NCBI RefSeq assembly: GCF_041886205.1
Contig: NZ_CP169029.1
Source of the DNA: Escherichia coli
GTDB taxonomy: Bacteria; Pseudomonadota; Gammaproteobacteria; Enterobacterales; Enterobacteriaceae
Reading direction: 5' to 3' (one strand)
DNA: 64,000 nucleotides
Position numbers and translations under genes: made by a program. Positions within the stretch are counted from its first letter, which is position 1. Every line of letters starts with the position of its first letter. The notes under the pieces were generated by a model. That model was not told where the DNA came from and ran no database searches. It worked only from the letters and a program-made list of their open reading frames with translations. Positions 28,975-64,000 of this stretch are shown piece after piece.

Positions 28975-30012
28975 TTAACGCTTATCCGCCACCAGTTTGA
29001 GCGCGTGTTCCAGCACATTAATGTCTGCACCCGCTTTATGGGCATTTTCACTTAAATAACGCCGCCACTGCCGCGCGCCAGGAATACCCTGGAACAAGCC
29101 CAACATATGCCGGGTAATATGACCGAGATACGTCCCCTGGCTGAGTTCACGCTCAATGTACGGATACATGGCGCGCACTACCGCCACCGGATCGGCATCG
29201 ATATCCGAGGAACCAAAGATCTCCCGGTCTACCGCCGCCAGAATACCCGGATTCTGATACGCCTCGCGCCCGACCATCACGCCATCCATATGTTGCAGGT
29301 GTGCTTTGGCCTCTTCCAGCGACTTGATACCACCGTTAATCGACATTGTCAGATGCGGAAAGTCACGCTTCAGTTGATACACACGCGGATAATCGAGCGG
29401 CGGGATCTCACGGTTTTCTTTCGGACTTAACCCCGAAAGCCAGGCTTTACGTGCATGGATGATGAACATCTCACACTCGCCTTTGCCGGAAACGGTGTTG
29501 ATGAAATCGCAGAGAAATTCATAGCTGTCCTGGTCGTCGATGCCAATACGCGTTTTCACCGTCACCGGAATCGACACCACATCGCGCATCGCTTTCACGC
29601 AGTCGGCAACCAGCTGCGCATTACCCATCAGACACGCACCAAACATGCCGTTCTGCACCCGGTCAGACGGGCAGCCGACATTCAGGTTGATCTCATCATA
29701 TCCACGCGCTTCTGCCAGCTTCGCACACTGCGCCAGCGCCGCCGGATCGCTACCGCCGAGTTGCAACGCTACCGGATGTTCTTCTTCACTATACGCCAGG
29801 TAATCACCTTTACCGTGAATAATCGCCCCTGTAGTTACCATTTCAGTATACAGCAACGTATTGCGGGAAAGCAGACGCAAGAAATAGCGGCAATGTCTGT
29901 CCGTCCAGTCGAGCATAGGAGCAATGCTAAACCGAGAATTCCAGTAAACACCAGTTTTTTCAGGCATCACGCTGGTTTGATTAATTTTTTGTGTTTCATG
30001 ATTATCGTGCAT
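28975..30012 (-). CDS. dusA: tRNA-dihydrouridine synthase A; its 5' end is probably supplied by the adjacent prophage
   Basis: 345-aa ORF. Dus TIM-barrel motifs ([22 protein letters not shown]). The intact ORF directly abuts a divergent integrase. Confidence 0.93.
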
Positions 30013-30100
30013 TTTTGAACATTTCAGGCTATTTTTCTCGCGTTAGGTTCCCGCACAGGTTCCCACGTTTTATGGGAACCCGAAATAACGAGGTCGTGTA

Positions 30101-31198
30101 ATGGCGTACTATAACATAGAGAAACGACTAAAATCCGATGGCACACCACGCTATCGCTGTAATGTGATTATCAAAGAAAAAGGTGTTATCACTTACAGGG
30201 AAAGCAAAACATTCCCTAAACATGCTCATGCCAAAACATGGGGCACACAGAAAGTGATGGAATTAGATCTATATGGCATTCCATCATCAAATGCAGTTGA
30301 CGGACTTACAGTCCGTGACTTACTACACAAATATTTAAATGACCCAAATGCCGGAGGTAAAGCAGGCCGTACTAAAAGATATGTGCTAGAACTGCTTATG
30401 GATAGTGACATCTCCGCGATCAAACTATCTGAACTGACAGAAAATGACGTAATTGAACATTGCAGGCTAAGAAACAACGCTGGCGCAGGTCCAGCAACAG
30501 TCAGCCACGATGTTAGTTATCTTGGTAGTGTTCTGGATGCGGCCAAACCTGTATACGGAATTAATTACACATCAAACCCGGCGAAAAGTGCTCGTCCATA
30601 TCTACTTAAACTTGGTTTGATTGGTAAATCAAACCGTCGTAATCGTAGACCAGCATCTGATGAACTGGACATGCTCATTGAAGGCCTTCAACAACGATCT
30701 ACTCATAAATGCTCAAAAATTCCGTTCGTTGATATCCTCAAATTTTCTGTGTGGTCCTGTATGCGAATCGGAGAAGTATGCCGGTTACGATGGGAAGATC
30801 TCGACCAGGAACAAAAATCTATACTCGTAAGAGACAGGAAAGATCCACGCAAAAAGGAAGGCAACCACATGAAAGTAGCCTTGCTTGGGGAAGCCTGGGA
30901 TATCGTCCAACGACAGCCCCAAAAATCGGAATTCATTTTTCCATATAACAGCACTTCTGTTACTGCGGGATTTCAGAGAGTAAGAAGCAAATTAGGTATT
31001 AAGGATCTGCGATACCATGATTTGCGTAGAGAAGGGGCAAGTCGCTTATTTGAGGCTGGTTTTAGTATTGAGGAAGTCGCCCAGGTTACAGGGCATCGTT
31101 CATTAAACGTGCTATGGCAGGTATATACCGAACTGTATCCGAAATCTTTACATAATCGTTTTGAAGAGCTCCAAAGGAGCAGAAATAAGATCCCTTGA
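30101..31198 (+). CDS. int: Tyrosine integrase, dusA-associated type
   Basis: 365 aa. C-terminal catalytic region HDLRREGASRLF...VTGHRSLNVLWQVYTELY (R..HxxR..H..Y). Divergent from dusA and 88 bp away. Confidence 0.9.
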   Translation: MAYYNIEKRLKSDGTPRYRCNVIIKEKGVITYRESKTFPKHAHAKTWGTQKVMELDLYGIPSSNAVDGLTVRDLLHKYLNDPNAGGKAGRTKRYVLELLMDSDISAIKLSELTENDVIEHCRLRNNAGAGPATVSHDVSYLGSVLDAAKPVYGINYTSNPAKSARPYLLKLGLIGKSNRRNRRPASDELDMLIEGLQQRSTHKCSKIPFVDILKFSVWSCMRIGEVCRLRWEDLDQEQKSILVRDRKDPRKKEGNHMKVALLGEAWDIVQRQPQKSEFIFPYNSTSVTAGFQRVRSKLGIKDLRYHDLRREGASRLFEAGFSIEEVAQVTGHRSLNVLWQVYTELYPKSLHNRFEELQRSRNKIP

Positions 31199-31259: not shown

Positions 31260-31508
31260 ATGCGTATTGAAATCTGCATAGCCAAAGAAAAAATGACTAA
31301 AATGCCAACCGGTGCTGTGGATGCGTTAAAGGAAGAATTAACCCGACGCATCAGTAAGCGTTATGACGATGTAGAGGTGATCGTAAAAGCCACCAGCAAC
31401 GATGGGCTTTCAGTTACACCTACTGCAGATAAAGATTCAGCTAAAACTTTTGTGCAGGAAACTCTGAAAGATACCTGGGAGTCTGCTGACGAGTGGTTTG
31501 TTCACTAA
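31260..31508 (+). CDS. DinI-family (DinI/MsgA-like) damage-inducible protein
   Basis: 82 aa. [10 protein letters not shown]...LKEELTRRI...[16 protein letters not shown] matches the DinI family pattern (MRIEVTIAK...ILQETWESADDWF). Confidence 0.85.
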
Positions 31509-31731: not shown

Positions 31732-32788
31732 GGCTTTGTTGAATAAATCAGATTTCGGGTAAGTCTCCCCCGTAGCGGGTTGTGTTTTCAGGCAATACGC
31801 ACGCTTTCAGGCATACCTGCTTTCGTCATTTTGTTCAGCGCTCGTACCAGGGCCATAGCCTCTGCAACCTGACCATCGTAGTCACGCAGCGTCAGTGAAC
31901 CCCCGAACAGCTGTTTTACCCGGTACATCGCCGTTTCCGCTATCGAGCGACGGTTGTAATCTGTTGTCCATTTCCACCGCGCATTACTCCCGGTCATTCG
32001 CTGATTAGCCACTGCACGGTTACGGTCTGCATATTCACCGGGCCAGTAACCCGCACCTTTTCGGGGAGGGATAAGCGCGCTGATTTTCTTACGCCGCAGT
32101 TCATCGTGACATAGCCGGGTATCGTAAGCGCCATCGGCGGCGGCTGACCTGATTTTCCGGTGGGTTTGCCGGATTAACCCGGGGAAGGCCTCTGAGTCCG
32201 TAACGTTGTTCAGCGACAGGTCAGCGCAGATGATTTCATGTGTTTTACTGTCAACGGCGAGATGCAGCTTACGCCAGATACGGCGGCGTTCCTGGCCATG
32301 CTTTTTGACTTTCCACTCGCCTTCACCGAAGACCTTCAGCCCGGTGGAATCAATTACCAGGTGTGCGATTTCACCCCGGGTGGGCGTTTTGAAACTGACA
32401 TTAACCGACTTTGCCCGCCTGCTGACACAGCTGTAATCCGGGCAGCGTAGCGGAACGTTCATCAGAGAAAAAATGGAATCAATAAAGCCCTGCGCAGCGC
32501 GCAGGGTCAGCCTGAATACGCGTTTAATGACCAGCACAGTCGTGATGGCAAGGTCAGAATAGCGCTGAGGTCTGCCTCGTGAAGAAGGTGTTGCTGACTC
32601 ATACCAGGCCTGAATAGCTTCATCATCCAGCCAGAAAGTTATGGAGCCACGGTTGATGAGGGCTTTATTGTAGGTGGGCCAGTTGGTGATTTTGAACTTT
32701 TGCTTTGCCACGGAACGGTCTGCGTTGTCGGGAAGATACGTGATCTGATCCTTCAACTCAGCAAAAGTTCGATTTATTCAACAAAGCC
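31732..32788 (-). mobile_element. IS903-group (IS5 family) insertion sequence, 1057 bp
   Basis: Perfect 18-bp terminal inverted repeats GGCTTTGTTGAATAAATC at both ends. 9-bp target-site duplication GTGCTTTGG at 31723-31731 and 32789-32797. A single transposase ORF lies inside. Confidence 0.95.
31788..32756 (-). CDS. IS903-type DDE transposase
   Basis: ...AKQKFKITNWPTYNKALINRGSITFWLDD...DSTGLKVFGEGEWKVKKHG...AETAMYRVKQLFGG matches the IS903/IS102 transposase as remembered. The family start (307 aa) would be the GTG at 32711. Confidence 0.93.
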   Translation of the reverse strand: MKDQITYLPDNADRSVAKQKFKITNWPTYNKALINRGSITFWLDDEAIQAWYESATPSSRGRPQRYSDLAITTVLVIKRVFRLTLRAAQGFIDSIFSLMNVPLRCPDYSCVSRRAKSVNVSFKTPTRGEIAHLVIDSTGLKVFGEGEWKVKKHGQERRRIWRKLHLAVDSKTHEIICADLSLNNVTDSEAFPGLIRQTHRKIRSAAADGAYDTRLCHDELRRKKISALIPPRKGAGYWPGEYADRNRAVANQRMTGSNARWKWTTDYNRRSIAETAMYRVKQLFGGSLTLRDYDGQVAEAMALVRALNKMTKAGMPESVRIA

Positions 32789-32843: not shown

Positions 32844-33848
32844 ATGCAAGATACAGACGTTTACGTATACATAGGCGATGTTCACCGCTCTGGTCATCAC
32901 GACATCACCAAAGCGATTAAAGAAAGAAAAACTAACCATGGTTTACAAAAAAATGTTCTTTTTTGCGTCGCTACCTATGGCGGTGATCCCAGCGCAGGAT
33001 ATAGAATTGGCCGCGCTTTGCAACACAACTATGAACACATCACCGTTCTAGTTGTTGGCCCTTGCAAAAGTGCTGGAACCTTGATGGCTGTCGCCGCTCA
33101 TAAGCTCGTGATTGGTGATATGGGTGAGCTTGGTCCTCTAGACATCCAACTTAAGAAAAATGATGAGATCGGCGAATTGAGCTCGGGCCTTGTTATCGCA
33201 ACGGCGATTGATGAAATAAAAGAGTGCGCTATTTCGACCTTTAGATCATACGTACTTGATATAAAGTACAGAAACCAAATTAGCACGAAGATGTCTGCAG
33301 ATATTGCTGCTAAGCTTACTGAAGCAATCATATCGCCGATGGCCTCACAGATAGACCCCATCAAACTCGGGGAGCATCAACGAGCAATGAACATAGCGCT
33401 TTCCTATGGGGAGCGTTTGAATAGTCACTCGAAAAATCTTAAGGAAAGCTCCTTAGGCAAGTTGATCGCTGGATATCCAGCCCATGGTTTTGTGATAGAC
33501 CGTAAAGAGGCGAGGGAACTATTCAACCATGTTGAGAGTCCTACAGACTTTGCAGCCAACCTGTACGAAGTTCTTGGTGAGATGATTTCGTCAGGCGAAA
33601 TCTCTATCTTCGACAAACCGGTGATTAAAGATTTAACTCCTAAAAAACAATATGAAACAACTAACGCAGAGGAAGATTCCCATGACAACAGCAGAATTCA
33701 GGAAGGAGATGAAATCTCTGACCAAAATTCAGGAAGAGCAGAACCGCCAAGGGATGAACCTGTCCAGGGAAGCGATGGAAAACATGCGGAAATTGAAGAA
33801 GAGGCTGGAACCTTACCAGCAGAGCAACCAGATGAAGGCACTCAGTGA
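32844..33848 (+). CDS. Orphan ClpP/SppA/SDH-fold serine peptidase with an acidic low-complexity C-terminal tail
   Basis: 334 aa. Contains VVGPCKSAGTLMAVAAHKLVIGDMGELGPLDIQ (Ser nucleophile in a G-x-x-S-A-G context typical of Clp-fold peptidases) and later AHGFVIDRKEARELF. The last ~70 aa are D/E/Q/P/G-rich. It has its own RBS (AGGGA) and a downstream terminator. Confidence 0.65.
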   Translation: MQDTDVYVYIGDVHRSGHHDITKAIKERKTNHGLQKNVLFCVATYGGDPSAGYRIGRALQHNYEHITVLVVGPCKSAGTLMAVAAHKLVIGDMGELGPLDIQLKKNDEIGELSSGLVIATAIDEIKECAISTFRSYVLDIKYRNQISTKMSADIAAKLTEAIISPMASQIDPIKLGEHQRAMNIALSYGERLNSHSKNLKESSLGKLIAGYPAHGFVIDRKEARELFNHVESPTDFAANLYEVLGEMISSGEISIFDKPVIKDLTPKKQYETTNAEEDSHDNSRIQEGDEISDQNSGRAEPPRDEPVQGSDGKHAEIEEEAGTLPAEQPDEGTQ

Positions 33849-34280: not shown

Positions 34281-34844
34281 TTATTTCGTTTGAATGCCAG
34301 TAACAGGAAATCGTTTATATAGGGTTGATAGCCCAACGTTATAGATACGTGCAACATAACGCCGTGATTTCCCTGCCGCTATGAGCGCTCCCATCTGTTG
34401 CCACTGCTCGTCGCTAAACTTCGGTCTACGCCCACCAATCCGGCCTTTGGATCTGGCAATAGCCAAACCAGCTAAAGTTCGCTCGCTATTCAAATCAGAT
34501 TCATACTGCGCAGCAGAAAGAATATTACGGAAATTATAGCGACCACTTGCTGTTTTCAGGTCTACACCATCTGTAATACTCCGAAAATTAACGCCTTTTT
34601 CGTGCAGATTTTGAAACATCAATAGCGCATGTAGCACATTTCTCCCTATCCGATCTAGCTTCCAGACAATCAACTCATCTCCACTTTTCATCACCGAAAT
34701 TAATTCCTTTAACACAGGGCGATTAGCTGTTCTGCCACTGGCATATTCTTCATAAATTCGCTCACAGCCAGCTGACTCAAGTGCAAGACGTTGCAACTCT
34801 GTATCCTGATGATTTGTTGATACACGAACATACCCGTAAATCAT
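34281..34844 (-). CDS. Serine-recombinase DNA invertase (Gin/Pin/Hin family)
   Basis: 187 aa. MIYGYVRVSTNHQDTELQ (catalytic Ser), ...DRIGRN..., and a C-terminal HTH GKSRRYVARIYNVGLSTLYKR. Adjacent to the invertible tail-fibre segment. Confidence 0.92.
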   Translation of the reverse strand: MIYGYVRVSTNHQDTELQRLALESAGCERIYEEYASGRTANRPVLKELISVMKSGDELIVWKLDRIGRNVLHALLMFQNLHEKGVNFRSITDGVDLKTASGRYNFRNILSAAQYESDLNSERTLAGLAIARSKGRIGGRRPKFSDEQWQQMGALIAAGKSRRYVARIYNVGLSTLYKRFPVTGIQTK

Positions 34845-34903
34845 GAGTGCTTCTCCTGTTGTAAAAACAGGAGAAGAGGCGAAATATCACCTGATTCAGA
34901 AAA

Positions 34904-34929
34904 ATATTTGAAAGGTTGGTTTGGGAGAA
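34904..34929. promoter_or_regulatory. Left inversion crossover site (gix/hix-like)
   Basis: ATATTTGAAAGGTTGGTTTGGGAGAA. Its 15 bp TTGGTTTGGGAGAAG (34916-34930) are an exact inverted copy of 36813-36827. Confidence 0.75.
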
Positions 34930-35415
34930 GGCTCAGCGTTACCCGTTGGTGTGCCTGTTCCGTGGCCTTCAGCCACACCACCAACAGGCTGGCTGAAATG
35001 CAACGGTGCACCTTTTTCTGCCGAAGAGTACCCAAAACTGGCAAAGGCTTACCCAAAGTTAAAATTACCGGATTTGCGCGGTGAGTTTATTCGCGGGTGG
35101 GATGATGGGCGAGGTGTTGATTCCGCGAGACTGCTGCTTTCAAGTCAGGCAGCATCTATCCTTGAACATAACCATGAAATGCATGGATGGACAGGGAACC
35201 CACTCATGGCTAGAGATGTTGGTGAATTAGGTACATCATCCGTATTTGCGGTGCAGTTGAGCATTGGCGATGGCGGGTTATTGTATTCGTGGAAGGATGG
35301 GAGTGGAACAACAAATGACAGTAAACGAATGGATAGAACAAATCATGTCAGTTCCGGCGCCGGTGATGGTAGCCCGCGAAACATTGCATTTAACTACATT
35401 GTGAGGGCTGCATAA
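34921..35415 (+). CDS. Silent alternative tail-fibre C-terminal cassette (Sv'-like, promoterless in this orientation)
   Basis: Begins inside the crossover site with no independent ATG or RBS. LGEGSALPVGVPVPWPSATPPTGWLKCNGAPFSAEEYPKLAKAYP... is the classic phage tail-fibre receptor-binding C-terminus. It would be fused to the constant part after inversion. Confidence 0.8.
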   Translation: MGEGSALPVGVPVPWPSATPPTGWLKCNGAPFSAEEYPKLAKAYPKLKLPDLRGEFIRGWDDGRGVDSARLLLSSQAASILEHNHEMHGWTGNPLMARDVGELGTSSVFAVQLSIGDGGLLYSWKDGSGTTNDSKRMDRTNHVSSGAGDGSPRNIAFNYIVRAA

Positions 35416-36018
35416 ATGGAACAGGCTATTTTGGGAAAAGACGGTTACGCTTTAAATGATGGGGAAATCATCGTACATAACTATGATGGCGAAACGCGGG
35501 AATATATTTCTACATCAACTGAATATCTCGCTGTCGGAGTCGGTATCCCGGCATGTTCCTGTCTGGATGCACCAGGTACACATAAAGCTGGTTATGCAAT
35601 CTGTCGCTCTGTAGATTTAAATTCATGGGAATATGTGCCAGACCATCGCGGTGAAACGGTCTATAGCACCAAAACAGGAGAATCAAAAGAAATCACCGCT
35701 CCGGGTGATTACCCTGAAAATACAACCACTATCGCCCCATTAACGCCATACGATAAATGGGATGGTGAGAAATGGGTGACCGATACTGAGGCACAGCATA
35801 GCGCCGCAGTAGACGCGGCAGAAGCACAGCGCCAGTCACTGATTGATGCTGCAATGGCTTCCATTAGTCTGATTCAACTGAAATTGCAGGCCGGACGTAA
35901 ACTGACGCAGGCAGAAACAACCAGACTTAACGCTGTGCTGGATTACATTGACGCGGTGACGGCAACAGATACCAGCACCGCGCCGGATGTCATCTGGCCT
36001 GAACTGCCGGAGGCGTAG
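35416..36018 (+). CDS. Tail-fibre assembly chaperone (Tfa/U'-like) of the silent cassette
   Basis: 200 aa. The C-terminal ...LIQLKLQAGRKLTQAETTRLNAVLDYIDAVTATDTSTAPDVIWPELPE is typical of the Tfa family. Confidence 0.85.
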   Translation: MEQAILGKDGYALNDGEIIVHNYDGETREYISTSTEYLAVGVGIPACSCLDAPGTHKAGYAICRSVDLNSWEYVPDHRGETVYSTKTGESKEITAPGDYPENTTTIAPLTPYDKWDGEKWVTDTEAQHSAAVDAAEAQRQSLIDAAMASISLIQLKLQAGRKLTQAETTRLNAVLDYIDAVTATDTSTAPDVIWPELPEA

Positions 36019-36442
36019 GCCATTCAATATCTGGCGCACTGGAGGTATCAACCAGCTCCAGTGCATCCAGATAATCCAGCCACAAATTATATTGCGCCAG
36101 TTCCTCACCTTTCAGACGACCAATAGCGGCTTTACCGGGCCATTGCTTACTGTTCATGTATTCGTTGGCCTGGTTAATTAGTAGCTGTCTTTCTGATTCA
36201 GTAATTTCAATAAGCTCTTCATGCGTGGGTGGAGGAATATCTGCCCACGCAGGCAGCCCATCATCTCCGGCAATACGGATTTTTCCTTGTGGCGGTTCAG
36301 CCATAAACTCACTGATAATATTTTGATTTACTTCCTTAGCGTCTGATAAATCCCATCCCTCTGATTTATATTTATCAATCATATCCACAGGGAAAAAAGC
36401 ATTATGCCTTGCGCTATAAACATATTCGTTCATATAAATCAC
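35990..36442 (-). CDS. Tail-fibre assembly chaperone (Tfa/U-like) of the expressed cassette
   Basis: 150 aa. ...LKGEELAQYNLWLDYLDALELVDTSSAPDIEWPTPP is the Tfa C-terminal motif. Convergent 29-bp overlap with the other tfa gene. Confidence 0.85.
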   Translation of the reverse strand: MIYMNEYVYSARHNAFFPVDMIDKYKSEGWDLSDAKEVNQNIISEFMAEPPQGKIRIAGDDGLPAWADIPPPTHEELIEITESERQLLINQANEYMNSKQWPGKAAIGRLKGEELAQYNLWLDYLDALELVDTSSAPDIEWPTPPAVQAR

Positions 36443-42771: not shown

Positions 42772-44673
42772 TTATCGTCTGAATGGAGAATACCCCACAT
42801 CGTGCGTGATTTTCATCAGGGGATCGGCTTTGCCCGGTACATCAATTATCTTCATACCTGGCGGAGCATTCTCGAACGTGACTTTCAGCTCGCTGTGCTG
42901 TGTCATGGAAGAAGATGGATTCAACAGCGGAACATTGGGTTTGTACTGACTCAGGCTGGCCTGATACTGCTCGTACTCTTTACGATCAAAAAAAGGCGTC
43001 CAGTCTGAAGCCAGAAACAGCCCTTTATTATCCAGCCAGTTAACCGTATCTTCAGGAACAACACTTTCCAGAGTATCTTTAACCGGCTCATACATCAGGG
43101 TTCCCAGAAAACCATATACCCCGGCCTTCCCGATAAAGCCGCGCCCTTTCCCCATCAATCCCGTTTCTGCCGATACCTTCCCCAGCGTACGCATCTCTCT
43201 GGTCACTGCGGTAATGGATTTGGTAACGTCAGCAACCCATTTGGTTGCCATAAACAGGGCAATCGCTTTCAGAACAGTTTCCCATCCCCCCATCGCCTGC
43301 GCCGTTTCATCCACCACGTGCCAGACTTTTTTTATGACAGGACCTACGGTTTCCCAATTATCAATAATGAGGTAAGCGCCACCAACCAGAAGAGCAATCA
43401 GCCCCTTAGCAGGCGTCATATTCATCACACCGCCGAGAACTTTCATGATTCTGGACAAAGAGCCTGCAGCGGCCCCCACTGTCAGTAAAGCCAGACCGAT
43501 TTTAGCAATGGTCTTAACGAGCTCCGGGTTTTCACGGACAAACGTTCTCACTTCCTCAAGGAGCGGTTTTACCGCTTCAAGACCATCATTAACCTCAGGA
43601 AGAAACGTTTCCCCCAGAGTGGAAGAAATGGCATCAAGTTGATTTTGCAGAAGTAAAAGCTGGTTTTCCGTCGTCGCTGCCCTCGAAGCATATTCCTTCT
43701 GCATCGAACTGCCATACTGCTGGGAATCCGCAACCCGCCTGAAGTTGGTACGCAACAAATCAAGGTTAGTCAGCAGAGGTGCTATCGCGCCCAGAGACTC
43801 TTTCCCGAACAGGGCATTCAGCACAGCTGCCTGTTTTTCTTTAGGCACTTTAGACATCGCATCCAGTACAGACAGCATGGTTCCCCGGGCATCTTTCTGC
43901 ATATCAGCAGCTAATTTCTTCGGATTGATCCGCAGAAAACGTAATGCCTGTTTCTGCGATTTTGTCGCGGAATTTCCCGCGGTCAGGGAAAGCATGAAGT
44001 TCTTGATCCCTGTGGCGGCAATTTCTGACTCCACGCCCATCCCGGCAATGGTTGCCCCCATTGCCGCGATTTCGCCGGAAGCCACACCTGCAACACCACC
44101 TAAAGGACCAATACGCGTAACAATATCGGAGATTTTCTTCGCATTCGCCGGACCGGTATTACCAAGGTAGTTGATTTTGTCAGCCAGCCCGGCCACTTCA
44201 TCCTGCGTCATATTAAACGCAGTACGCCACTGGGCCATCATCTGCCCGGACTCTTCAGCCGTGGTATCAAAGGCCACGCCCATCTTCACCGCATCAGTGG
44301 CAAACTGCATCAGTTCATCACGTGCAATCCCGGCCTGACCGCCAGCCGCCACAATTTCCGCGATCCCGTCTGCAGACATGGGAAGCTCAGTAGACAAAGC
44401 GCGTACCTGCTCCGTCATGGCCTTAAACGCATCCGGCGTATCCAGACCGTCCACCACTTTGCGGACATCAGCCATCTTCGATTCAAGGGTGATGGCTGAT
44501 TTTACAGGGAGTGCCAGTGCCCCCATTATTGCAGTACCCGCCCCGGCAGCGCCCAGAGCAAGGCTGGAGACTTCTTTCTGAAACCCCTTAAGCTGACGCT
44601 GCATACCTTTAAGCGGGCCGGATAGCCTGTCAACGGCGGTGATGATGGCTTTCAGCTGAAAATTATCAGCCAT
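42772..44673 (-). CDS. Tail tape-measure protein
   Basis: 633 aa. Ala/Gly-rich helical and hydrophobic segments. Preceded by the chaperone/frameshift gene pair. Confidence 0.88.
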   Translation of the reverse strand: MADNFQLKAIITAVDRLSGPLKGMQRQLKGFQKEVSSLALGAAGAGTAIMGALALPVKSAITLESKMADVRKVVDGLDTPDAFKAMTEQVRALSTELPMSADGIAEIVAAGGQAGIARDELMQFATDAVKMGVAFDTTAEESGQMMAQWRTAFNMTQDEVAGLADKINYLGNTGPANAKKISDIVTRIGPLGGVAGVASGEIAAMGATIAGMGVESEIAATGIKNFMLSLTAGNSATKSQKQALRFLRINPKKLAADMQKDARGTMLSVLDAMSKVPKEKQAAVLNALFGKESLGAIAPLLTNLDLLRTNFRRVADSQQYGSSMQKEYASRAATTENQLLLLQNQLDAISSTLGETFLPEVNDGLEAVKPLLEEVRTFVRENPELVKTIAKIGLALLTVGAAAGSLSRIMKVLGGVMNMTPAKGLIALLVGGAYLIIDNWETVGPVIKKVWHVVDETAQAMGGWETVLKAIALFMATKWVADVTKSITAVTREMRTLGKVSAETGLMGKGRGFIGKAGVYGFLGTLMYEPVKDTLESVVPEDTVNWLDNKGLFLASDWTPFFDRKEYEQYQASLSQYKPNVPLLNPSSSMTQHSELKVTFENAPPGMKIIDVPGKADPLMKITHDVGYSPFRR

Positions 44674-63177: not shown

Positions 63178-63240
63178 TGTAGGATATCCAACATGCAAAT
63201 GTCAAGAATCCTACATGGGCATGTGGTAGGATTGCCTACA
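63178..63240. promoter_or_regulatory. Tripartite operator region with divergent early (PR-like) and maintenance (PRM-like) promoters
   Basis: Three 16-bp sites of type TGTAGGAT-ATCCTACA: 63178-63193 TGTAGGATATCCAACA, 63200-63215 TGTCAAGAATCCTACA, 63225-63240 GGTAGGATTGCCTACA. On the minus strand, TTGACA (63200-63205) and TACATT (63176-63181) with an 18-nt spacer face cro. Confidence 0.7.
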
Positions 63241-63893
63241 TGATGAACATGAGTGATCGTATTCGCCAAAGGCGAAAAGAACTGAACCTGACACAACAAG
63301 CACTGGCTGATTTGACTGGTGTGAACCGTGTCACGGTTACTGGATGGGAAAAGGACGACTACCAACCAAATGGAGCCAACCTTCAAGCCCTAGCCAACGC
63401 ACTTAAATGCGATCCTCTGTGGCTTGTTAGCGGAAAAGGCTCGCCTGAACCAAAGATAAATCTAAAACCTGAAATATTCGCAGTTAAAAAAGTCCCCCTA
63501 ATCTCGTGGGTTCAGGCGGGTTCATGGACAATGACGGAGCCTGGTGTCAGGAAAGAAGATGCTGAAGAGTGGGTTTATACTACCGCCCTTGTATCAGAAA
63601 TGGCATTTGCACTACGGGTCCGTGGTGATTCAATGACCAATCCCCTCGGCTCACCATCGATACCAGAAGGTTCTATCGTTATCGTAGAGCCAGATATTAT
63701 TGATACAGAGTGTATTAACGGAAAAATCGTTGTTGCCCATATCAATGGTGGGCAAGAAGCGACACTCAAAAAATTTGTTGAGGACTGGCCGAACAGGTAT
63801 CTCGTCCCACTAAATCCTAACTATAAAACTATTGAATGCGGTGAGAACTGCAGAATAGTTGGTCTTGTCAAACAAGTAATAATGGATTTTTGA
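63240..63893 (+). CDS. CI-like prophage repressor (HTH_XRE plus S24 LexA-type autopeptidase)
   Basis: 217 aa. N-terminal IRQRRKELNLTQQALADLTGVNRVTVTGWE. C-terminal ...FALRVRGDSMTNP... (S24 Ser) and a later Lys region. Confidence 0.88.
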   Translation: MMNMSDRIRQRRKELNLTQQALADLTGVNRVTVTGWEKDDYQPNGANLQALANALKCDPLWLVSGKGSPEPKINLKPEIFAVKKVPLISWVQAGSWTMTEPGVRKEDAEEWVYTTALVSEMAFALRVRGDSMTNPLGSPSIPEGSIVIVEPDIIDTECINGKIVVAHINGGQEATLKKFVEDWPNRYLVPLNPNYKTIECGENCRIVGLVKQVIMDF

Positions 63894-63956: not shown

Positions 63957-64000
63957 TGTAGGATAACCAACATAAACTCTTGACACTCACATGTTGGATA
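63957..64000 (+). promoter_or_regulatory. Second operator cluster with an outward TTGACA -35 (OL/PL-like), truncated by the window edge
   Basis: TGTAGGATAACCAACA at 63957-63972 (same operator family), TTGACA at 63980-63985, and the start of another site TGTTGGATA at 63992-64000. Confidence 0.6.

Follow-up and report, generated by a model that had tools for sequence, protein, structure and literature searches.

A prophage in the 5' end of Escherichia coli dusA and the candidate arm-type integrase sites next to it

How much of a dusA gene that adjoins a tyrosine integrase gene belongs to the host, how much of it was brought in by the integrated element, and what lies in the short spacer between the two genes? 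These questions are raised by a 64,000-nucleotide stretch of DNA from Escherichia coli (RefSeq assembly GCF_041886205.1, contig NZ_CP169029.1), which was analysed as a whole and is called the window here. An earlier note on this DNA had proposed that a prophage is integrated in the 5' end of dusA and provides the gene with a surrogate N-terminus and promoter. The dusA reading frame (28975-30012, minus strand, 345 aa) was taken from the ORF list and identified by its match to the Pfam Dus family (PF01207, 2e-104) and by the dusA annotation in near-identical genomes. It is intact, as the note had stated, and a gap of 88 bp (30013-30100) separates it from the divergent tyrosine integrase gene. 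The chromosomal genes before the prophage (tyrB, alr, dnaB, qor, pspG, dusA) belong to a standard stretch of the E. coli chromosome, and foreign DNA follows. We consider it very probable that the reconstruction given below is correct as a whole, i.e. that the locus is the attL of a temperate SfV-like myovirus with an integration module of the dusA-associated integrase (DAI) type that is nearly identical to the module of phage mEp460.

The position of the junction was determined by alignment with prophage-free strains. The window is near-perfectly similar to K-12 up to position 29916, about 78% identical in 29917-30015 and without similarity past 30015. The continued identity up to 30100 that would be expected if the junction lay elsewhere is thus absent; similarity drops at 29917 and ends at 30015. 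The whole dusA-int junction was present in 739 of 5426 complete E. coli genomes, and the others match only to 30015 or 29925. At the protein level, nine of the first 30 residues differ from K-12 DusA (residues 3, 5, 7, 15, 21, 23, 25, 26 and 30), whereas the 315 residues beyond contain a single difference (I271T). The impression recorded in the note, that about 30 N-terminal codons are unlike K-12 DusA and the remainder is alike, was therefore accurate.

A four-way alignment of the window attL, the attL and attR of the related TUM9754 prophage and the attB of K-12 contains only one block that is common to all sequences, TCGAGCAT (29909-29916, dusA codons M33-L34-D35). To the right of this block, attL carries the divergent segment and attR a segment of the K-12 type. 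We designate the block, which the attP alignments also delimit, as the common core in which crossover occurs, and it agrees with the published core region TCCAGTCGAGCATGGGAGC (PMC6328086). Free phage mEp460 has an intact attP, in which 96 bp resembling dusA separate the core from int, and this attP matches the one that we reconstructed from the two ends of the TUM9754 prophage. Together, the attL/attR/attB alignment and the mEp460 attP place the crossover in codons 33-35 and identify the dusA 5' end as phage DNA. The comparison therefore shows, at the level of sequence, both the position of the junction and the phage origin of the divergent segment: the prophage is integrated in the 5' end of dusA and supplies a surrogate for it, which bears out the origin that the note had suggested.

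Judged by these alignments, dusA in the window is a hybrid gene, composed of a host-derived body and a phage-derived 5' end. The host-derived part (codon 36 to the stop, 28975-29908, minus strand) extends to the core and differs little from K-12 dusA (identity about 97-100%). The phage-borne segment dusA' (29917-30012, minus strand, 96 bp) provides surrogate codons 1-32 with about 78% nucleotide identity to K-12 and has the same length as the native segment that it replaces. The remainder of the region between dusA and int (30016-30100), where the similarity of prophage-free chromosomes has stopped, is purely phage DNA and is designated as the P' arm of attP.

The 5' end of dusA also varies among E. 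coli genomes in another way. A third, short type of 5' end with zur directly upstream, and without yjbL and yjbM, was seen in 1123 of the 5426 genomes, among them the type strain ATCC 11775 (an example is SCU-122, locus positions 810-960). Its similarity to the K-12 type breaks off exactly at the integrase core (TCAAGCAT). Beside these genes we found no integrase, no arm repeats and no displaced fragment. The idea that the K-12-type 5' end and yjbLM are remnants of an older island was not supported, since no displaced 5' fragment of the B2 type is found next to zur. A seemingly phage-like 5' allele in the prophage-free strain BE2-5 turned out on inspection to be of the plain K-12 type.

Within the 64-kb window, neither the K-12 dusA 5' region nor the core was found a second time, and the prophage, which begins at 29909, consequently runs off the window end at 64000. 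Its far end was therefore sought in relatives. The TUM9754 prophage is 98.6% identical over 97% of window positions 40000-64000. At the far end of this 39-kb element, a gene of the PrtN family is followed by two small genes on the reverse strand and by a dusA 5' pseudogene of 105 bp, after which come yjbM and zur. The pseudogene is of the K-12 type and is annotated as 'tRNA-dihydrouridine synthase, missing C-terminus'. From the alignment with TUM9754, the attR of the window prophage is predicted to lie about 5.7 kb past the window end, and, judged by the relatives, the whole right end (rdfN, P arm and attR) is outside the window. In O157:H7 the element is degraded to 11 kb and has these ends as well, an attL and an attR with the displaced dusA 5' fragment. 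The two reverse-strand genes of TUM9754 are located between rdfN and attP (locus positions 42947-43990), and one of them encodes a Panacea domain. This pair at the attR end may be a toxin-antitoxin system or defence cargo; mEp460 and O157:H7 have other small genes in its place.

The part of the prophage that is inside the window contains the late genes of an SfV-like myovirus along with genes for lysis, Q, replication and cI. Downstream of int follow a DinI-like gene (31260-31508, plus strand, PF06183), which is a conserved neighbour of int in the mEp460, TUM9754 and O157:H7 elements, an IS903-like insertion 0.5 kb from int, an ORF for a ClpP-fold protease and a Pin-type invertase gene with tail-fibre genes. 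Further on, a complete set of genes for a myovirus tail, an HK97-type head, terminase, lysis, Q and replication, and finally cI (63240-63893), extends to the window edge. Shigella phage SfV covers 68% of the late region with 97% identity, and Escherichia phage SKA5 covers 86% of it with 97.8% identity. The combination of an SfV-like body (39000-63900) with a dusA-targeting module that is shared with the lambda-like mEp460 represents an exchange of int/attP modules between unrelated phage bodies.

Some components of this region deserve a separate description. The IS903-like (IS5-family) element comprises 1057 bp (31732-32788). Its ends are inverted repeats (31732-31764 and 32756-32788), and its transposase ORF is on the minus strand (31788-32756); the insertion separates the dinI-like gene from the ORF that follows, and the TUM9754 prophage lacks it. 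A comparison with an IS5 terminal repeat gave no match, and the inverted repeats are IS903-like. In the next ORF (32844-33848, 334 aa), a match to PF01972 that stays below the cut-off (27 bits) gives the signature of a ClpP-like serine protease of the SDH type; the C-terminal tail of the protein is acidic. Another genome has the annotation 'SDH family Clp fold serine proteinase' for this ORF, which looks like prophage cargo. The gene for the Pin/Gin-type serine invertase (34281-34844, minus strand) is located beside oppositely oriented ORFs for tail fibre and tail-fibre assembly, and 34281-36442 is likely an invertible host-range segment.

The integrase gene (30101-31198, plus strand, 365 aa; PF00589, 7.5e-21) is preceded by a GAGG ribosome-binding site that was read from the sequence (30090-30093, plus strand), 7 nt before the ATG. 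Int is predicted to consist of a beta-beta-beta-alpha N-terminal domain (residues 1-58, modelled with a pLDDT of 83), a core-binding domain (about 72-165) and a catalytic domain (189-346). The R-H-R-H tetrad (R222, H306, R309, H332) and the nucleophile Y342 are invariant in an alignment of 16 sequences. Residues 1-70 do not match any Pfam family, and in NCBIfam the protein matched only Xer and integron models, far below threshold. A GCC-box fold has been reported for the N-terminal domain of lambda Int. The window Int shares 98.9% identity with the mEp460 integrase and 34% with those of Burkholderia phages DC1 and AH2, all three of which were named among the phage-borne DAI homologues (Farrugia 2015, PMC4482086). 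This homology shows Int to be a member of the published DAI family, and the note's proposal that a dedicated integrase family acts at the 5' end of dusA agrees with the near-identity to the mEp460 enzyme.

To place the locus in its family, we assembled 80 loci from Gammaproteobacteria with integrases 52-99% identical to Int. A divergent dusA is found immediately upstream of int in 56 of them, with a gap of about 87-90 bp in the Enterobacterales loci. The other 24, among them loci from Xenorhabdus, Serratia, Providencia, Raoultella and Buttiauxella, are without dusA upstream; a few of these have flanks too short to tell, and the rest are presumably inserted at other targets.

The note had remarked that no Xis-like small ORF accompanies int, and this holds for the entire 64-kb window, which stops at cI and contains neither a Xis- or RdfN-like ORF nor a PF11112 homologue. 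The missing Xis is not an anomaly, since DAI elements use RdfN, which is encoded across attP and would thus lie at the far end of the prophage, beyond the window. RdfN is a PrtN-like protein that has been shown experimentally to be the directionality factor and is encoded across attP from int (Durand 2021, PMC8409611). A PrtN homologue is present in 64% of DAI islands, and excision of a dusA element as a circle after mitomycin C has been described (PMC4482086). For the mEp460-type module, the intact attP of the free phage is indirect evidence of such excision. In TUM9754, mEp460, O157:H7 and Klebsiella phage Kp4886-1, we found a gene with the PF11112 (PrtN) domain at the expected place next to attP; NCBIfam gave no match for RdfN.

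The spacer between dusA and int contains the octamer AGGTTCCC at 30045-30052 and again, 12 bp further, at 30057-30064 (both plus strand), and an inverted copy GGGAACCC, which agrees in 7 of 8 bases, at 30074-30081 (minus strand). All three repeats, including the inverted GGGAACC(C) at 30074, are located where the note had reported them. Based on the layout in the whole family, we propose that they are arm-type Int sites and call them P'1, P'2 and P'3. P'2 and P'3 form a perfect 8-bp inverted repeat (30058-30065 and 30073-30080). The octamer occurs only three times in the 64 kb (1.6 occurrences expected), once outside the spacer, and two exact copies at a distance of 12 bp are thus not a chance pattern. 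When the reconstructed attP (808 bp) was searched with at most one mismatch allowed, only five copies were found, all of them within 175 bp of the core. Relative to the core, two are in direct orientation at -62 and -51, two in direct orientation at +136 and +148, and one is inverted at +165. On the rdfN side, the similarity between mEp460 and TUM9754 starts right at the first of these sites.

The same arrangement recurs in related loci. In the 100 bp before int, a perfect direct pair of 8-mers with a spacing of 10-13 bp was found in 50 of 78 loci and a pair with 7/8 matches in 24 more, so that a phased direct pair is present in 74/78. Such pairs were found in shuffled sequences with a frequency of 0.6% (8/8) or 7% (7/8), and in windows from int coding sequences with a frequency of 0.6% (8/8). 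An inverted third copy is frequent in these upstream regions. In a minority of the 78 loci, the best-scoring pair is another, AT-rich repeat spaced by 10 bp and not the C-rich motif. The motif varies by lineage (AGGTTCCC, AGCACCCC, AGTACACC, AGGACACC, GGTATCCC, AGTACCCC and others), while the layout is constant. Klebsiella phage Kp4886-1 has its own motif on both arms, as has a Vibrio tectivirus-like element, in which the pair is located at exactly -62 and -51. The two-arm layout is kept in phages DC1, AH2 and F1Pa, whose integrases are only 34-37% identical to Int; in phage YL2, within the same range of identity, the P'-arm repeats are clear and the P arm is less obvious.

The class of the motif also tracks the third predicted strand of the Int N-terminus, with KY[IV]YREN accompanying AGCACCCC and KH[LI]HRET accompanying AGTACACC. 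In a partial Mantel test, motif distance correlated with the distance in Int residues 1-60 when the rest of the protein was controlled for (r 0.52, permutation p 0.0005), a correlation that ancestry partly confounds. The converse, a correlation with the rest of Int when residues 1-60 were controlled for, did not hold (r -0.15). Because the motif is found on both arms, because phased pairs occur across the family and because the motif covaries with the N-terminal domain of Int, the spacer repeats are most likely arm-type sites to which Int would bind. The suggestion of the note that they might be integrase arm sites thus gains strong support from sequence comparison (both arms, 74/78 loci, covariation with the N-domain).

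Two further observations concern the same regions in other loci. All loci examined in the group without upstream dusA (Xenorhabdus, Serratia, Providencia, Raoultella and Buttiauxella; one locus was too short for analysis) have kept a phased pair of the AGCACCCC type, and the arm layout thus seems to be independent of the core target. Marine loci have additional GAATTnC(G/C)TT repeats in a 10-bp phase 60-100 bp upstream of int, i.e. upstream of the arm sites. These repeats are within or near the surrogate dusA 5' region and might be sites of a second binding protein or an element of bent DNA.

In the searchable literature, no paper ties the term 'arm-type' in substance to dusA integrases, and the term is absent from Durand 2021. 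A publication on an sRNA of mEp460-like prophages turned out to deal with something other than this locus. With some reservation, we favour the view that attP has a family-wide design that is undescribed in this literature: a pair of sites spaced by 11 bp on the rdfN side (at -62/-51 in Enterobacterales and Vibrio elements), the core, dusA', and two direct sites and one inverted site upstream of int, with a motif that co-evolves with the Int N-domain and with Int occupancy as a factor that could set the expression of int and hybrid dusA. Most of the 88-bp divergent region is taken up by the P' sites, and hence their occupancy by Int could also tune the expression of both genes in lysogens.

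The following mechanism would account for the locus. In the attP of the phage, the 8-bp core TCGAGCAT matches dusA codons 33-35 and directly adjoins the 96-bp copy of codons 1-32. Crossover by Int in the core splits dusA and joins the host body in frame to the phage copy at attL, as seen in the window, and the native 5' end with its upstream region ends up at attR, where it forms the 105-bp pseudogene that relatives have on the other side of the prophage. The three RGGTTCCC repeats in 30045-30081 are most likely P'-arm binding sites for the N-terminal domain of Int, with a pair of the RGGTTCCC-type motif, 62 and 51 bp on the other side of the core, as their P-arm partner. Excision would be expected to require the PrtN-like RdfN, encoded just inside attR, and in this copy it may be affected by the IS903-like insertion 0.5 kb from int.

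Everything upstream of 30015 is phage DNA, so that a promoter for dusA would have to be supplied by the phage, and the hybrid gene is probably transcribed from phage DNA. A scan for sigma-70-like promoters (at least 9/12 matches) gave no hit on either strand in 29700-30500. When the scan was loosened, the best candidates on the minus strand were more than 760 bp upstream of dusA, with nothing nearer, and a weak TTGATT-17-GATTAT was found on the int strand at 29977-30005. K-12 has a candidate native dusA promoter about 170 bp upstream of the ATG, which would be displaced to attR by integration. For a related island in E. coli dusA, a dusA'-lacZ fusion was expressed at a reduced level, with a new promoter and an N-terminus of the same length (PMC8409611). 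Putative promoters after integration were noted for DAI islands, in which the replaced segment restores the first beta strand of the TIM barrel (PMC4482086). The proposal that the phage supplies the dusA promoter therefore stands in so far as the upstream region is wholly phage DNA and a related element provides a precedent, but a sigma-70 consensus that would represent this promoter was not found. In 53 of the 56 dusA-linked loci, dusA' can be read without interruption from a start codon that is located upstream of the core, and in Enterobacterales the frame has exactly the native length, which argues for selection on a restored dusA.

Three other explanations have to be weighed. The spacer repeats might not be arm sites at all, but operators for RdfN or a repressor, or Int sites that only repress the integrase's own promoter. 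Their location 20-56 bp upstream of the int ATG is the usual one for operators, and a perfect 8-bp palindrome such as that of P'2/P'3 is typical of dimeric regulators. Against this reading, the motif is found again on the other arm: in mEp460, TUM9754 and the Vibrio element it forms a phased pair there whose distance from the core is fixed, and it also recurs there in phages with integrases only 34-37% identical. The motif moreover tracks the N-terminal 60 residues of Int specifically, and autoregulation can coexist with arm function. We thus regard it as unlikely that the repeats are regulatory sites only, and arm-type Int sites remain our preferred reading.

Still less probable, in our estimate, is that hybrid dusA is silent or inactive in lysogens and that dusA' is maintained merely as a part of attP, for its spacing and core flanks. 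This would be in line with the lack of a promoter consensus upstream of the gene, with the nine changes in 30 N-terminal residues and with the finding that dusA is dispensable in laboratory deletion libraries (PMC4482086). It is difficult to reconcile with a frame that has stayed open in nearly all dusA-linked loci and has native length in Enterobacterales, with the expression, at a reduced level, of dusA'-lacZ in the related element (PMC8409611), and with the supply of the first TIM-barrel strand by the replaced segment (PMC4482086). Finally, the divergent 5' end could be the product of allelic variation or gene conversion, with the true junction elsewhere and the integrase merely adjacent. 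The third, short 5' end without an adjacent integrase in 1123 genomes demonstrates that such variation exists. The segment in question, however, is contained in the attP of free phage mEp460 and co-occurs with int, and its K-12-type counterpart is displaced to attR in lysogens; the attL/attR/attB alignment and the mEp460 attP refute allelic variation, and we assign it practically no probability. We therefore retain the reading of the locus as an attL with a surrogate 5' end of dusA.

The locus is a well-delimited case in which a phage repairs the very gene into which it inserts, and it allows the core and the surrogate segment to be placed exactly in E. coli. As the junction is present in about one seventh of the complete E. 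coli genomes (739/5426), many strains would make a DusA with a phage-encoded N-terminus, the expression of which would depend on the phage. This phage-borne N-terminus is relevant to studies of DusA and dihydrouridine. The map of arm sites can be used as a design for footprinting experiments and for vectors that integrate into dusA by means of an Int and arms matched to each other.

The biology of the junction is already known, having been published in 2015 and supported by experiments in 2019 and 2021. What is added here is small, namely the comparative definition and layout of the arm sites, which we did not find in searchable papers. The DAI elements (Farrugia 2015, PMC4482086) share with our locus the insertion in the dusA 5' end, the replacement 5' end and a PrtN homologue at the other end (here seen in relatives); Escherichia was listed as a well-represented host, and nothing essential is different here. 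Phage mEp460 has a lambda-like side tail fibre, whereas the window phage has an SfV-like contractile tail; since the phage bodies differ, it is the integration module that is common to both and not the whole phage. The Stx2 phage phi-stx2dact / phi1720a-02 (Balasubramanian 2019, PMC6328086) is likewise inserted about 100 bp into dusA, with the core region TCCAGTCGAGCAT..., int adjoining attL and an in-frame dusA' ORF, and its attP was detected after induction. It differs in its phage backbone and in its dusA', for which a longer ORF (184 bp) was described. IMEVchUSA3 and the dusA-specific SGI1-like islands (Durand 2021, PMC8409611) have the same target and the same layout of int, attP and rdfN, but IMEVchUSA3 is a mobilizable island under the control of AcaCD from IncC plasmids, whereas the window element is a phage. 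ICE SXT, which is integrated in prfC (cited in PMC8409611), is unrelated in both its integrase and its target.

The proposed arm sites and the predicted small N-terminal domain are reminiscent of the heterobivalent integrases of the lambda type, which also have a separate domain of this kind, repeated non-core arm motifs on both sides of the core and an excision directionality factor. The arm sites in lambda attP are P1 and P2 on one side and P'1-3 on the other. In the dusA module, however, int is located downstream of attP and not upstream, and the directionality factor is PrtN-like and no homologue of lambda Xis. Int itself is not close in sequence to lambda Int; its closest characterized relatives are the Rci shufflon recombinases.
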